NCBI GenBank assembly: GCA_016870365.1
Contig: VGBW01000007.1
Coordinates: 1,317-65,316 of the forward strand
DNA: 64,000 nt
Reading direction: 5' to 3'
Source of the DNA: Actinomycetota bacterium
GTDB lineage: Bacteria; Actinomycetota; Actinomycetes; Nanopelagicales; Nanopelagicaceae
Part shown: positions 2,376 through 31,034 of the stretch, one piece after another
Position numbering within the stretch: position 1 is the stretch's first letter
Layout: each line of letters starts with the position of its first letter
Position numbers and translations under genes: made by a program
Notes under the pieces: generated by a model
Databases searched by the model: none
Told to the model about the DNA's origin: nothing
What the model saw: only the letters and a program-made list of their open reading frames with translations

Positions 2376-3853
2376 AGTTTTCCTTGATCTAGTTTTGTAA
2401 GAACTTCTTTAGCCCTAGCTCTCACCTCAGCTAGATCCTTTAGCCTATCCAGCCCAAGTAGTTGTTGGGCCATCCGGTGGTTGCCTCTAAATTCTTCGCG
2501 ATGCCTATCTAGAAAGTCCCAATAAAGGGTTGTAAAGGGGCAGGCATCATCACCGGTGCGCCTCTTTGGATCGAAGTAACAACCTTTGCAATGAGTACTC
2601 ATCCTTGAGATATAGGCGCCCCCTGCTGCATATGGTTTAGTCATCATCATTCCACCATCTGCATGAACCCCCATGCCAATGACATTGGGGACCATCACCC
2701 AATCACTAGCATCGACAAAAACCTCTCTCATCCATTGGAGAAATTGCTGCGGACTAATTCCAGCAATTAAAGCAAAGTTACTTAGGATCATTAGCCGCGG
2801 GATGTGATGGACCCAGGCGCGCTCTTTGATATCGGCGATGGTGTTCTTAAGGCAGTTCATCTTGGTTTTGCTTGGATCGCTAAAGAGAAATGGTAGCTCT
2901 CGCTTGGCTCCTAATTCATTGCTCTGACGATACTCTTTTCCTAGATACCAATACATTCCATTGACATACTCACGCCAGCCGATGATCTGTCGGATAAAGG
3001 CCTCTGCAGAGGCGATAGGAATATCTCCCTTTTCAAATCTCTTGATAGCAGCCTTCACAACCTCTTCTGGATGAAGCAGGCCATTATTCAAGTAAGGACT
3101 TAAGAGTGAGTGATGTAGCGCCCAGCTCTCATCGGTAATGGCATCTTCATAGGGGCCAAAGTTTGCAAAGTGATTTCTGAGAAAGTTATCCAATTGTTTC
3201 AGCGCGCCTGATCTGGCGGTGGCCCAATTTCCAGAAGGGGTATGTTCTAATTCTTTGGCCACCTGCAGATCCATCTCATCTGGAACATGGGTTAGATACT
3301 TGGGCCACTTGTAATTCTTTGGAGGTGGGAGGCGATTTTCCCTATCAAAGTTCCAAGCGCCCCCCAGTGGCTTTGCTTTATCCATCAATATATTGAGCCG
3401 GACTCTCTGTTTGCGATAGAAATCCTCCATCAAGTAGCTCTTCCGTCCCTCTGCCCATTTGGCAAAGAGCGGTCGAGGGGTGAGGAAGAAATCATTTTCA
3501 ACAAAGCTCACGCCATATTCACTAAGTGATTGATAGAGCCGGTGTGATGAGGGTTCTGCAGCAAATATTCTTGCTCCCTTATATTTCTTTGAAAGCTGAT
3601 CAAGACCAGCGGTGGTGCTTGCAGCTTCTATATATTCGACTTTGAAACCTTTTTCTTTCAACTCTTGCGCAAAGTGTTTCGCACTTGAGATTAAGAAGTA
3701 AAGTCGCTCAGGATGCCAATTCTTCCCAGAGGTCATCGGCTCACTTTGGATCATTGCCATTACATCGCTTTTGGCATCAGCGCTATTTAGAACCCCGTAT
3801 TTTGCGTGTAATTGATCAAAGCCGATGTAGAGGATGCGCTTCACGATGCGCAC
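2372..3853 (-). CDS. Cryptochrome/photolyase family protein of the Fe-S (FeS-BCP, PhrB/CryB-like) type, putative (6-4) photolyase
   Basis: 493 aa. The C-terminal part carries the four-Cys pattern C...CxxC...C (MNC ... HCKGC ... DACPFTTLYWDFL) that characterises [4Fe-4S] bacterial cryptochrome/photolyases. Confidence 0.85.
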   Translation of the reverse strand: MRIVKRILYIGFDQLHAKYGVLNSADAKSDVMAMIQSEPMTSGKNWHPERLYFLISSAKHFAQELKEKGFKVEYIEAASTTAGLDQLSKKYKGARIFAAEPSSHRLYQSLSEYGVSFVENDFFLTPRPLFAKWAEGRKSYLMEDFYRKQRVRLNILMDKAKPLGGAWNFDRENRLPPPKNYKWPKYLTHVPDEMDLQVAKELEHTPSGNWATARSGALKQLDNFLRNHFANFGPYEDAITDESWALHHSLLSPYLNNGLLHPEEVVKAAIKRFEKGDIPIASAEAFIRQIIGWREYVNGMYWYLGKEYRQSNELGAKRELPFLFSDPSKTKMNCLKNTIADIKERAWVHHIPRLMILSNFALIAGISPQQFLQWMREVFVDASDWVMVPNVIGMGVHADGGMMMTKPYAAGGAYISRMSTHCKGCYFDPKRRTGDDACPFTTLYWDFLDRHREEFRGNHRMAQQLLGLDRLKDLAEVRARAKEVLTKLDQGKL

Positions 3854-3883
3854 AATTGTATTGACCCTGATAGATTTTGCGCT

Positions 3884-4948
3884 ATGGATTTAGATAATCT
3901 GAAATTTGGCCTCGATACCTTCGGTGATATGCAAAACGACGATTCTGCAACCCCTATCTCTGCTGCTGCCACGATCAGAAATGTGGTGGAGCAGGCAGTC
4001 TTGGCAGATGAGCTCGGCATTGATCATTTCAGTATCGGTGAGCATCACCGTGATGACTTTGCTATCTCCTGCCCTGATACCGTTCTTGCTGGCATTGCCA
4101 CTAGAACAAGGCAGATAACGCTAGGAACCGCAGTCACAGTTCTATCAAGTGATGATCCAGTCCGGGTTTATCAAAGATTTGCCACCATTGATGCGCTCTC
4201 AAATGGTCGAGCTGAAATAACCGCAGGGCGCGGTTCATTTATTGAATCATTTCCACTATTTGGGTATGAACTTTCAGATTACAGTGCCTTATTTGAAGAA
4301 AAGCTTGAGCTATTAGTTGAGATATTGAAAGAACATGCCGTCACCTGGTCAGGAACTATGCGCGCACCGCTAATTAATCAAGAGATTTATCCCAAAACCG
4401 AGCGTGGCAGCATTCCACTCCGCGTAGGAGTTGGTGGAACACCAGAGTCAGTGGTGAGGGCTGCGAGAGTAAACGCCAAATTGGCTATCGCCATTATTGG
4501 TGGGGATCCAGCTCGATTCAAGCCCTTTGCAGATCTTTATCGAAGCTCAATGCAGGAATTTGGTCATCAAGTTCTGCCGATTTCAATTCACTCTCCAGGC
4601 CACATTGCCGCATCACAAGAGATCGCAATTGAGGAGCTCTGGCCACATTATCAGGTGATGTTTGGTCGAATCGGCAGAGAGAGAGGCTGGGGCCAGGTCA
4701 CAAGAGAGCACTTCATCAATGAGGTGAAATACGGCTCCTTCTATGTGGGAAACCCAGAGCAGGTGGCTAGAAAGATCGCCTATGCGATGAAGTCGCTAGG
4801 AGCCCAGAGATTTGATTTTAAGTATCCAAATGGACCTATGGCGCATGGCAAGTTAATGAGCTCCATTGAGCTCTATGCCAAAGAAGTAATACCCATGGTA
4901 AGGGAGAATTTGGTCAGCCGGAAAGACAGTTCTCTAACCCGAATTTAA
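3884..4948 (+). CDS. LLM-class (luciferase-like) flavin-dependent oxidoreductase
   Basis: The N-terminus MDLDNLKFGLDTFGD..., the motif FSIGEHH and the length (about 355 aa) are typical of the family. I chose the ATG at 3884. The track start at 3812 would overlap the divergent gene. Confidence 0.85.
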   Translation: MDLDNLKFGLDTFGDMQNDDSATPISAAATIRNVVEQAVLADELGIDHFSIGEHHRDDFAISCPDTVLAGIATRTRQITLGTAVTVLSSDDPVRVYQRFATIDALSNGRAEITAGRGSFIESFPLFGYELSDYSALFEEKLELLVEILKEHAVTWSGTMRAPLINQEIYPKTERGSIPLRVGVGGTPESVVRAARVNAKLAIAIIGGDPARFKPFADLYRSSMQEFGHQVLPISIHSPGHIAASQEIAIEELWPHYQVMFGRIGRERGWGQVTREHFINEVKYGSFYVGNPEQVARKIAYAMKSLGAQRFDFKYPNGPMAHGKLMSSIELYAKEVIPMVRENLVSRKDSSLTRI

Positions 4949-29634: not shown

Positions 29635-30511
29635 CCCTGCTGCCGCTCCACTTTCCGGTGAGCAAGATAAATAGAGGGGCAATAACTACTGCAATCACCG
29701 CTGCTGGCCCCCAGGCCACCTCAGCACTTCTAAGAAGGCTGACTGCAGGAAGTGCTGAATCATCACTGGATACCAGAAGTGCTGCCAGTAGGTTATTGGC
29801 AAAATGTGCACCAATTGCTAGCTCTAGGCTCTTATCGCGATATGTGACCCAGGCCAACATGAATCCGGTTGCTCCATAGCTGATGATGGGAAAGAGGAGC
29901 TCATTTCCAGAGACTTCAGGGTTTAATAGATGCGGAAGCGAGAAGAGAGCGCCGCTAATAATCGAGATGCTCCATTGCTTCATCTTGCCATTATCGAGCC
30001 ATTGCTGGATCCAACCTCTAAAGAAGAGCTCCTCTGCTGTAATTTGAATGGGAAGGAGGGTGAAGGCAATTAATAGATAGGGTAAGAAGGCCGAGGCCTC
30101 AAAGCTAAAACGATAGGAGCCCCAGTTAAGAAGAAGTTCTAAGGCTCCAAGAGAGAGTGAAATTAGGGCAAGGGAAGCAAAGCCAATCCAGGTCTTCTTA
30201 TAAGAGTATCTCTCATGGAAGGTAAATAGGCTCTTTTGATTCCGTTTTAAGAATATTCGATAGGCCAGAAGAGTTGCCAGCAATAAGGGTAGAAATGAGA
30301 TTAGAACAGTGGCTGCGCTACTCCAAGCGGGAAGGGCTCTGATCTTTGCAAGATCTTCATCAGCATTTGGAAACAGCAGCTCTGCATCAAGGTCAAAGAA
30401 GCCAGCAAGTAAGAGGGTCAGGGCCAGGCCAAGAACCTGCCAGGTGGTAACGATAAAGATGGTTCCAACAATCCAGCGCCAGAGAGCGGGGCGGGCTATC
30501 TGGCTTGTCAT
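29594..30511 (-). CDS. CPBP-family intramembrane glutamic endopeptidase (CAAX protease-like)
   Basis: Motifs EELFFRGWIQ, LPHLLN and IGAHFANN. I chose the start at MTSQIARP (30511). Confidence 0.85.
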   Translation of the reverse strand: MTSQIARPALWRWIVGTIFIVTTWQVLGLALTLLLAGFFDLDAELLFPNADEDLAKIRALPAWSSAATVLISFLPLLLATLLAYRIFLKRNQKSLFTFHERYSYKKTWIGFASLALISLSLGALELLLNWGSYRFSFEASAFLPYLLIAFTLLPIQITAEELFFRGWIQQWLDNGKMKQWSISIISGALFSLPHLLNPEVSGNELLFPIISYGATGFMLAWVTYRDKSLELAIGAHFANNLLAALLVSSDDSALPAVSLLRSAEVAWGPAAVIAVVIAPLFILLTGKWSGSRAIEGSSPRSLRDA

Positions 30512-30562
30512 CTCACTAACTCTTTCTCTTTCCGGGCATGTAGATAAAGGATGAGGTAAGAG

Positions 30563-30594
30563 AAAAGCCCGGCGCATATGCGGCCGGGCTTTTT
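30563..30594 (-). terminator. Bidirectional-looking intrinsic terminator downstream of the small basic gene
   Basis: AAAA-GCCCGGCGCATATGCGGCCGGGC-TTTTT. The GC-rich stem is flanked by an A-tract and a T-tract. Confidence 0.6.
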
Positions 30595-30613
30595 CCGTAA
30601 AACCAAAGCGTGC

Positions 30614-30772
30614 TTACTTTGCAGCTTTCTTACGACGACGACGACGCTTTGGAGCTGCCTTTGCAGCCTTCTTACGACGACGACGCTTTGGAGCTGCCTT
30701 TGCAGCAGCCTTCCTACGACGACGACGCTTTGGAGCTGCCTTTGCAGCTTTCTTACGACGCTTTGCAGCCAC
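30614..30772 (-). CDS. 52-aa Ala/Lys/Arg/Pro repeat protein (protamine/histone-H1-tail-like), hypothetical
   Basis: It falls below the ORF-track cutoff. GTG start with AAGGA 7 nt upstream. The translation is MAAKRRKKAAKAAPKRRRRRKAAAKAAPKRRRRKKAAKAAPKRRRRRKKAAK, then TAA, then the terminator at 30563-30594. A 21-nt core (ctttggagctgcctttgcagc) occurs three times at 39/42-nt spacing. Confidence 0.5.
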   Translation of the reverse strand: MAAKRRKKAAKAAPKRRRRRKAAAKAAPKRRRRKKAAKAAPKRRRRRKKAAK

Positions 30773-31034
30773 GTAGTGTTCCTTTCAGAATGGTTCGATC
30801 CGTCACCGAACCGGTTGCAGGCAAATCGTGTCACTTATTGGCCAAAGTTTCCACTATTTGGAGCAAATATGTAGGGTGCGTGTCGGAATTCTTTTTCCTA
30901 AAGAATCGTGTATTGGGCGATTTTTTTTGCTATTTTTACCCACTTTTTACGCGTAAATATTGCGATTTCCGAGAATTCAAGAAAAAACGACTTTTACCAC
31001 CTAGCTACTAAGGGGTGGGGGGAGAAAAATATTT

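Follow-up and report, generated by a model that had tools for sequence, protein, structure and literature searches.

Whether a short tandem repeat that is open in several reading frames is a gene at all, and what its highly charged product could do for a cell, are the questions raised by a locus in a 64,000-nucleotide (nt) stretch of contig VGBW01000007.1 from a member of the Nanopelagicaceae (Actinomycetota; assembly GCA_016870365.1), the whole of this stretch being called the window below. The original prediction, made from the letters of the window, placed here a 52-amino-acid (aa) open reading frame (ORF) of Ala, Lys, Arg and Pro in three 39/42-nt repeats at 30614-30772 on the minus strand, read it as a stand-alone gene, and likened its product to protamines, histone H1 and the tails of actinobacterial HU. 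It is apparent from the analysis reported here that the gene is almost certainly real and translated, that it has relatives throughout acI/Nanopelagicales, and that its product may act on nucleic acids by charge.

Evidence for a translated gene

The ORF was re-derived together with its three repeats, its translation being MAAKRRKKAAKAAPKRRRRRKAAAKAAPKRRRRKKAAKAAPKRRRRRKKAAK. The product comprises 17 A, 15 K, 16 R, 3 P and 1 M, with K or R at 31 of the 52 residues (60% basic) and neither acidic nor hydrophobic residues, and it is the sole strongly polycationic stretch in the 64-kb window. Tandem Repeats Finder reports 3.5 copies with a period of 42 and a score of 225; the 21-nt core that had been noticed at 30647, 30686 and 30728 does lie at these positions, the full exact core being longer than was thought, at 33 nt, with three copies that start at 30635, 30674 and 30716 and are spaced by 39 and 42 nt. 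The predicted AAGGA Shine-Dalgarno (SD) sequence 7 nt before a GTG, the TAA stop and the hairpin with its U-tract are all present, with the hairpin (-24.9 kcal/mol, followed by UUUUCUCUU) beginning ~18 nt past the stop. A consensus terminator scan did not report this hairpin, which it overlooked because of a bulge in the stem. AlphaFold gives a single long helix for the peptide (pLDDT 93.6), a result of little weight for a single low-complexity sequence.

The ORF is not a chance product, because the same gene recurs in dozens of genomes. A scan of one genome per GTDB species with the back-translated motif KAAPKRRRR returned at least 119 loci, and at least 45 acI/Nanopelagicales species genomes among the loci listed carry the stand-alone ORF, including Ca. 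Planktophila sp. BS7, several Ca. Nanopelagicus and Nanopelagicaceae metagenome-assembled genomes (MAGs), and the single-cell genomes SCGC AAA027-J17 and AAA278-I18. The acI loci found in this way have AGGA, AGGAG or AGGAGG 6-8 nt before a GTG, encode 24-102 aa with an N-terminus MA(A)KRRKKAA and 1-6 repeats, and stop at TAA, with a strong intrinsic terminator 12-25 nt beyond; the terminator is present at every complete locus, though its stem sequences are unlike between sublineages. A second scan was independent of the coding motif, with the non-coding leader hairpin described below as the only bait against metagenomes, and 42 of its 120 matches are family members, a K/R/A/P ORF following the hairpin in 42 of 42; the remaining matches are chance 16-mers in high-GC organisms. 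The family total is ~88 loci in which SD, start, stop, terminator and frame are conserved, as the reading of a stand-alone gene on the minus strand would have it, and the hairpin-bait set stretches the length to 155 aa, giving an overall span of 24-155 aa and 1 to ~9 repeats.

This second scan also uncovered a Lys-rich subfamily (e.g. MAAAKKTAPKRRKKAAAKAAP...) that has an ATG start and sometimes a TAG stop. The GTG and TAA are invariant in the Arg-rich subfamily only, with 14 of the Lys-rich orthologues using ATG and 6 using TAG. The Lys-rich forms sit at the same nadE / panB-(MFS) -> X -> M13 locus as the Arg-rich forms, and because the locus is identical they are orthologues, not paralogues; the orthologues include both Arg-rich short forms and Lys-rich long forms. 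Similar microproteins were thus found after panB in relatives, with or without the MFS gene, and this synteny persists to ~58% PanB identity. At least nine genomes or contigs lack the MFS gene at the locus, and the downstream neighbour alternates between CPBP, an M13 peptidase and an opposite-strand ABC ATPase.

Copy-number variation of the repeat had been foreseen, and strains with near-identical leaders do differ in repeat number. Loci L002-L005 have 4 repeats and L006/L007 have 3, with 240-nt leaders that differ at one base, and the closest relative of the window (L152; MFS protein 92% identical, ABC ATPase 94% identical) has 6 repeats and 95 aa against the 3 repeats and 52 aa of the window. 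These differences support slippage as the source of copy-number change, repeat counts being subject to the collapse of repeats that can occur in short-read assemblies.

Two side observations concern the records in which the family is found. A predicted protein of 138 aa on a 1452-nt JGI contig (P0003) joins a transposase-like N-terminal segment to an exact Lys-rich acI polycation C-terminal end (...KKVVAKKAAPKRKKAAKKAVAAPAAAPKKRRKKAVAAK), and may be an insertion sequence element in the gene or an assembly chimera. A number of MAG records, nine with the acI-type locus (L043, L046, L048, L072, L077, L102, L110, L112, L114) and one with an Ilumatobacteraceae HU-plus-tail locus (L039), are titled 'Bifidobacterium breve', 'uncultured Bifidobacterium sp.' or 'uncultured Clavibacter sp.', labels that look wrong because synteny and sequence are those of freshwater Actinomycetota lineages.

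Open frames are uninformative here because several of them run across the repeat, as had been seen in the window and is now seen across the family, where the sense +1 frame and one antisense frame are also open in 64 of 67 members. The evidence for translation comes instead from codons. Arg is encoded by CGT in 92% of cases in the family, compared with 12% in the long ORFs of the window and a median of 11% in 281 acI ORFs; Pro is encoded by CCA in 98% against 41%, and Ala by GCT in 61% against 27%. Next after the family in CGT use come rplS (ribosomal protein L19, in two genomes) and ABC solute-binding proteins, both of a sort that is typically abundant in cells. Not one internal AGGAG/GGAGG motif occurs, where genome-average codons would give ~74 (minimum 47 in 200 simulations), and runs of six or more A number 29 where the same simulation gives ~107. 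The synonymous fraction is highest in the predicted frame among all six, in an equal-length pairwise codon-position test that is noisy because of repeat-register shifts, and no other frame was favoured. The amino-acid character is kept while the DNA diverges between the Arg-rich and Lys-rich forms. Codon choice is under selection for translation, and it is probable from the codons that the gene is expressed at a high level; transcript-like short contigs were looked for in the metagenome scan and none was recognisable.

The gene had been described as unannotated and this is nearly true, the exceptions being that one ENA assembly calls the ORF exactly and that two database clusters hold over-extended versions. 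These two clusters, both extended at the N-terminus, are all that was returned by a search of 5.8 billion proteins, and their members lie in the same place on other metagenome contigs, after panB and the gene of an MFS_3 transporter, and there the repeat numbers and the downstream gene differ. When 1.84 billion representative proteins were searched exhaustively with HMMER one relative was returned, the exact sequences with M- and V-starts are absent from the cluster index, the viral contigs searched gave only two unrelated large proteins, and the family was not described in the literature searched. Pfam and NCBIfam give no qualifying match for the 52-aa protein or its longer relatives. Against PF07382 HC2 (gathering threshold 40 bits) the 52-aa and 80-aa forms do not match and the 155-aa acI form reaches 10.9 bits (E=0.5), whilst against NF038053 and NF038052 (cutoffs 80 and 135 bits) there is no match for the window protein; the best acI member for NF038053 is again the 155-aa form at 19.6 bits (E=9e-4), below the cutoff, the other members giving 10.6 bits or nothing. 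A PDB sequence search gives nothing for the 52-aa form, and for the 155-aa form only a compositional match to a chloroplast L29 extension. Searching proteins with the 155-aa Lys-rich form finds unrelated proteins bearing similar tails, and not HU; K/A/P-rich repeat extensions occur at the N-terminus of an ABC permease-like membrane protein (P0004) and of ribosomal protein L30 (P0005), and such tails seem to be a reusable module.

The leader and other features of the locus

A region of its own upstream of the gene had been predicted, and the 262 nt that separate it from the upstream MFS gene include ~115 nt ahead of the start that are conserved across the order (alignment A1). The conserved blocks in the alignment are AAATAGTGGAAA and GTGNCACG(A/C)TT, and the positions of all features are collected in Table 1. 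The conservation of block C continues in the ATG-start subfamily, which speaks for a DNA-level role of this block. The candidate -35/-10 pair is a putative promoter, and a consensus promoter scan found no canonical sigma-70 site.

Directly ahead of the SD lies the stem-loop that served as bait, which is unique in the window and shows compensatory changes at 3 pairs. Its CGGA is in or at the loop in all 39 distinct leaders, always 19-22 nt upstream of the AGGA of the SD. Over its full length the window leader is no more stably folded than its shuffles (z=-1.0), and Rfam 15 covariance models run on the ORF and leader gave nothing at gathering thresholds, with only noise on the terminator at E<=10. 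For sequestration of the SD by an upstream anti-SD, 85% of cells are paired, with one U-A/A-U switch, and in a duplex-energy test 3 of the 14 leaders scored beat their shuffles, significance being confined to a few sublineages and the window leader not being among them (z=+0.7).

The placing of one CGGA in the loop and one AGGA in the SD resembles the CsrA/Rsm layout, in which two GGA motifs lie ~10-60 nt apart, a hairpin loop holding one of them and the SD the other, and a CsrA protein is encoded in the genome. No CsrA homologue was found in the ~1.5 Mb of sequence searched, which is not whole genomes, and Actinomycetota is not known to have CsrA. A conserved control region of its own can be ascribed to the gene, with one well-supported RNA hairpin that presents an invariant motif, and the stem-loop with its CGGA suggests post-transcriptional control, possibly through mRNA stabilisation or feedback.

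Two other ideas about the leader were given up. One was a shared promoter or operator, dropped as the leader motifs are specific to the locus that follows panB/MFS and a second exact copy of AAATAGTGGAAA, at 4250-4261 on the minus strand of the window, lies antisense within the coding region 3812-4948(+) and is judged coincidental. The other was sequestration of the start codon by pairing of GNCACG or CGACACG with CGUGGC, which was rejected as a general model as the pairing does not covary and the blocks are also kept in orthologues whose start is ATG.

Table 1. Positions of the features discussed (window coordinates, unless preceded by a locus number)
Feature	Position	Strand	Remarks
Coding sequence, 52-aa K/R/A/P polycation	30614..30772	(-)	GTG start (30770-30772), TAA stop, three 13-14-aa repeats; orthologues agree in start context and composition; codon-level selection
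Shine-Dalgarno AAGGA	30780..30784	(-)	7 nt ahead of GTG; AGGA/AGGAG/AGGAGG 6-8 nt ahead of the start throughout the family
Rho-independent terminator	30555..30596	(-)	AAAAAGCCCGGC...GCCGGGCTTTTCTCTT; equivalent 12-25 nt past the stop in every complete family locus
Leader stem-loop GGTTCG-GTGACGGAT-CGAACC	30792..30812	(-)	directly 5' of SD; CGGA in or at the loop; unique in the window
Block C GTGACACGATT	30824-30834	(-)	conserved in alignment A1; retained by ATG-start members
Candidate -35/-10 pair TGGAAA-17 nt-CACGAT	within 30824..30859	(-)	putative promoter
Block B AAATAGTGGAAA	30848-30859	(-)	conserved in alignment A1
Block A TTCCGACACGC	30878..30888	(-)	invariant CGACAC ~112 nt upstream of the start, with a -10-like hexamer before it; candidate alternative transcription-start region
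Tail-less HU and separate polycation ORF	L017:2063-2530, L039, L106; L249-L254:1501-2261; L256-L259:1501-2213		Acidimicrobiia (Ilumatobacteraceae, Ilumatobacter-type)

On the other side of the gene, the mechanical ORF of the downstream CPBP (Rce1-like) protease starts from 30577 and overlaps the terminator of the small gene (window 30512-30577, minus strand), and the gene as called in the matching ENA contig is of 305 aa, which puts its real start at the ATG at 30511 (MTSQIARP...).

HU tails and other basic repeat proteins

The likeness to H1, HU tails and protamines that had been pointed out found a concrete counterpart in Acidimicrobiia, where a split HU core and a separate tail ORF stand side by side, and this is the most telling clue to function. 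In Ilumatobacteraceae a 94-aa tail-less HU ends in TAA and is followed, after 26 nt, by an ORF with an SD and ATG that reads MAAKKRKKAAKK...KKAAPKRRRRKKAAAKK (also given as MAAKKRKKAAKKATKKAPKK...KKAAPKRRRRKKAAAKK), and the close Acidimicrobiia HUs are all tail-less, ending ...LKAELNPNRK. Ilumatobacter-type contigs carry one identical HU protein and then a GTG ORF, MAATKK(AAPAKK)nAAAKKK, of 36, 42, 90 or 144 aa by sample. Within another Acidimicrobiia clade a 141-aa K/A/T-rich ORF comes after HU and begins at a GTG that shares bases with the HU stop (GTGA), implying translational coupling, and this ORF passes the Pfam HC2 model for histone H1-like nucleoprotein (59.8 bits against a cutoff of 40). 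It follows from such separate ORFs that the H1-like HU tail of Actinomycetota can be made as a polypeptide of its own. The ORFs after HU are often missed by gene callers or put on the wrong strand, and the I. coccineus MAG locus L255 does not have one. The Ilumatobacteraceae ORF has both termini in common with the acI peptide (z = 4-6 over shuffles, a score inflated by the comparators having been found through a shared 9-aa motif), and a search for the HU family returned only Acidimicrobiia relatives.

The actinobacterial HU tail (HupB/Hlp/MDP1, HupS) belongs to the same phylum as the acI peptide and both are low-complexity, strongly basic, K/A/P-rich repeats, the AAKAAPK units of the acI peptide resembling the KAAK/PAKK of the tail. 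In mycobacteria the HupB tail is needed for nucleoid association in vivo (PMC5676037). The acI protein differs in that it is neither fused nor adjacent to HU, has no Bac_DNA_binding (PF00216) domain, has its own SD, start codon, leader and apparently promoter, goes down to 24 aa, and is much richer in Arg (RRRR/RRRRR), the window form being Arg-dominated; its similarity to the M. tuberculosis HupB tail is not above composition, with z about 0-1. Whereas the Acidimicrobiia tail ORF directly follows HU, the acI gene follows panB/MFS with its own leader.

Free-standing, repeat-built proteins are also known from Chlamydia (Hc2/HctB, PF07382) and as the H1-like proteins of Burkholderiales/Bordetella (NF038053), which are Lys/Ala-rich and DNA-condensing. 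The repeat number of Hc2 differs between strains. The acI members are 3-8 times shorter than these proteins and Arg-rich, and belong to another phylum and lifestyle, that of free-living ultramicrobacteria. Protamines and the histone H1 C-terminal domain resemble the acI peptide in having clusters of 4-5 Arg, short neutral spacers, ~60% basic residues and no globular domain, and their action is expected to be driven by charge, as is proposed for the acI peptide. The likeness is compositional, there being no evolutionary relationship, and the acI peptide is without Cys or Ser/Thr phosphorylation sites and stands in a bacterial regulatory context. The KPAA-repeat tails of AlgP/PhaF in Pseudomonas are H1-like, DNA-binding tandem repeats whose number varies between isolates (PMC9239181), but they are joined to a folded N-terminal domain, are Lys-only, and have a function tied to polyphosphate (polyP) or PHA granules. 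Lastly, the ribosomal microproteins bL37, bS22, Thx and eL41 are near in size to the shortest family members and have extreme K/R content in common with them; their length and sequence are fixed, whereas the acI family varies six-fold in length. The kind of protein is thus already known, in the form of bacterial H1-like and HU-tail-like basic repeat proteins. What is new is an undescribed family that is domain-free, down to 24 aa, Arg-rich, and found with its own conserved leader at one fixed locus across the order, which is the most abundant one among freshwater bacteria.

Free polycations were also seen outside Actinomycetota. Marine Thaumarchaeota (Ca. Nitrosopelagicus) have a conserved stand-alone K/R/A-rich ORF of 79-135 aa (L020:1633-1872, L063, L074, L075, L104, L116, L029) that begins MA(M/T)SKAKRSAAAKKAARTRKR, finishes in KRKAAPKRRRR and contains (GGAKRKAAPKRKAA)n repeats in varying number. 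It appears to be a family of its own among the free polycations, again from a lineage that is planktonic and streamlined. Ca. Limnocylindrus and related Chloroflexota MAGs have an ORF of ~97 aa, MAAKKRKAAAKRKPAAKKRK...KKAAPKRRRRKAAKKA (L015:32-325; L009:~2228-2518), with termini that resemble those of the acI and Ilumatobacteraceae peptides, a likeness that could be due to convergence or to transfer among freshwater plankton.

Possible roles of the polycation

The gene is read as monocistronic, with its own putative promoter and leader, SD, GTG, TAA and intrinsic terminator at one chromosomal position throughout acI/Nanopelagicales, and its product is a free-standing, intrinsically low-complexity polycation (~60% K+R) built of AAKAAPKRRRR(K)K units. 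The product would act by bulk electrostatics, binding the phosphates of nucleic acids non-specifically and so neutralising and compacting the nucleoid and/or RNA, in the manner of histone H1 C-terminal domains, the PAKK/KAAK tail of actinobacterial HU and protamines. As such a function would depend on charge and length and not on a fold, the repeat number would be free to drift by slippage. Electrostatic, fold-independent binding is favoured over a fixed structural role, e.g. in the ribosome, because of the six-fold length tolerance, the interchange of K and R and the lack of any other residue type. The peptide is predicted to bind nucleic acid and the nucleoid may be its main target, with the acI gene possibly a relocated H1/HU-tail-like polycation that drifted in some lineages to a protamine-like composition of Arg clusters. 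The grounds for placing it among nucleoid-associated proteins are indirect, being its composition, a codon bias like that of rplS and solute-binding proteins, and the HU-linked relatives. The chance that the mechanism is that of a nucleic-acid polycation is put at about even.

Several points weigh against this. An Arg-rich polycation would bind rRNA, mRNA or polyP as readily as DNA, the likeness among low-complexity sequences can be convergent, and the acI peptides reach no curated H1-like model. A tblastn search with the HU core found no HU in the window or near the gene in any of the ~88 acI loci. The extreme CGT bias, for its part, could come from avoidance of AGR-rich, SD-like runs or from homogenisation of the repeat, and not from the level of expression.

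The strongest competitor, though a good deal less probable, is a polycation that works at the ribosome or on RNA, either as an rRNA binder like bL37, bS22, Thx and eL41 or as an RNA chaperone or condenser. The shortest members (24-36 aa) are of the size of ribosomal microproteins, the codon usage is like that of rplS, the structured conserved leader with its invariant loop motif recalls autoregulated ribosomal-protein operons, and ribosomal protein L30 (P0005) bears a like K/A/P extension. A span of 24-155 aa and the switch between Arg-rich and Lys-rich orthologues are hard to fit with a fixed rRNA pocket, however, and the gene lies outside ribosomal operons; the ribosomal microprotein models of NCBIfam and Pfam, and the ribosome chains in PDB, give no match for the 52-aa form.

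It is improbable that the partner is another polyanion, the peptide serving as an organiser of polyP granules, a bulk counter-ion or a polyamine substitute, as has been proposed for the AlgP KPAA tail. The precedent is that the H1-like repeat tail of AlgP associates with polyP granules and spaces them (PMC9239181), and the acI peptide is pure charge without specificity determinants, but AlgP has a folded N-terminal domain that the acI peptide lacks and there is no ppk or other polyP gene at the locus. Very unlikely is a secreted cationic antimicrobial or signalling peptide, exported by the MFS protein and processed, or given immunity, by the CPBP or M13 protease. The upstream neighbour is indeed an MFS_3 'secretion effector' transporter and the downstream one a peptidase of the CPBP/Abi type or of M13, and polycations such as protamine are antimicrobial. 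The gaps and alternations among these neighbours noted above count against such a system, however, as do the strong terminators and separate leader that insulate the gene. Signal or leader peptide, hydrophobic face and cysteines are all lacking in the peptide, and MFS pumps are not known to export polycations of 5-15 kDa.

Least tenable is that the repeat goes untranslated and serves as a structured RNA, a slippage-prone spacer or some other non-coding element of DNA or RNA, its ORF being incidental, for although the extra open frames would allow this and the frame is preserved partly automatically, all repeat units being multiples of 3, it is made very unlikely by the codon choice (the bias being sensible in the coding frame only), the avoidance of internal SD-like motifs and poly-A runs and the preserved amino-acid character taken together, as well as by the signals kept in ~88 loci and the lack of an Rfam family match even at E<=10.

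A wider form of the nucleic-acid-polycation proposal is more tentative, and doubtful as it stands, namely that Nanopelagicales, with their ultra-small cells and streamlined genomes, rely on an unrecognised, very highly expressed 'bacterial protamine' of 24-155 aa for much of the charge neutralisation and compaction of the chromosome. The same reading would have the peptide originate from, or in parallel to, the actinobacterial HU tail, with dose and length tuned by slippage and the leader RNA element, and would make the analogues in Acidimicrobiia, Limnocylindria and marine Nitrosopelagicus a convergent genome-packaging solution in streamlined planktonic prokaryotes.

The gene matters for the study of these organisms in that acI/Nanopelagicales dominate freshwater bacterioplankton, yet it is nearly absent from protein catalogues, whilst its codons are used more extremely than those of ribosomal protein genes. 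It would be overlooked in metaproteomic, metatranscriptomic and pangenome studies because the protein catalogues and the Pfam/NCBIfam models lack it. The finding in Acidimicrobiia of the 'eukaryote-like' HU tail as a separate, apparently translationally coupled and length-hypervariable ORF suggests that the tail may work in trans, and the split HU offers an evolutionary route to the free-standing acI gene. Should the acI peptide be a polycation of the nucleoid or of RNA, the chromatin toolkit of bacteria would gain a protamine-like member that is Arg-rich and domain-free, and the peptide would provide a tractable case in which function is carried by charge and repeat number alone.

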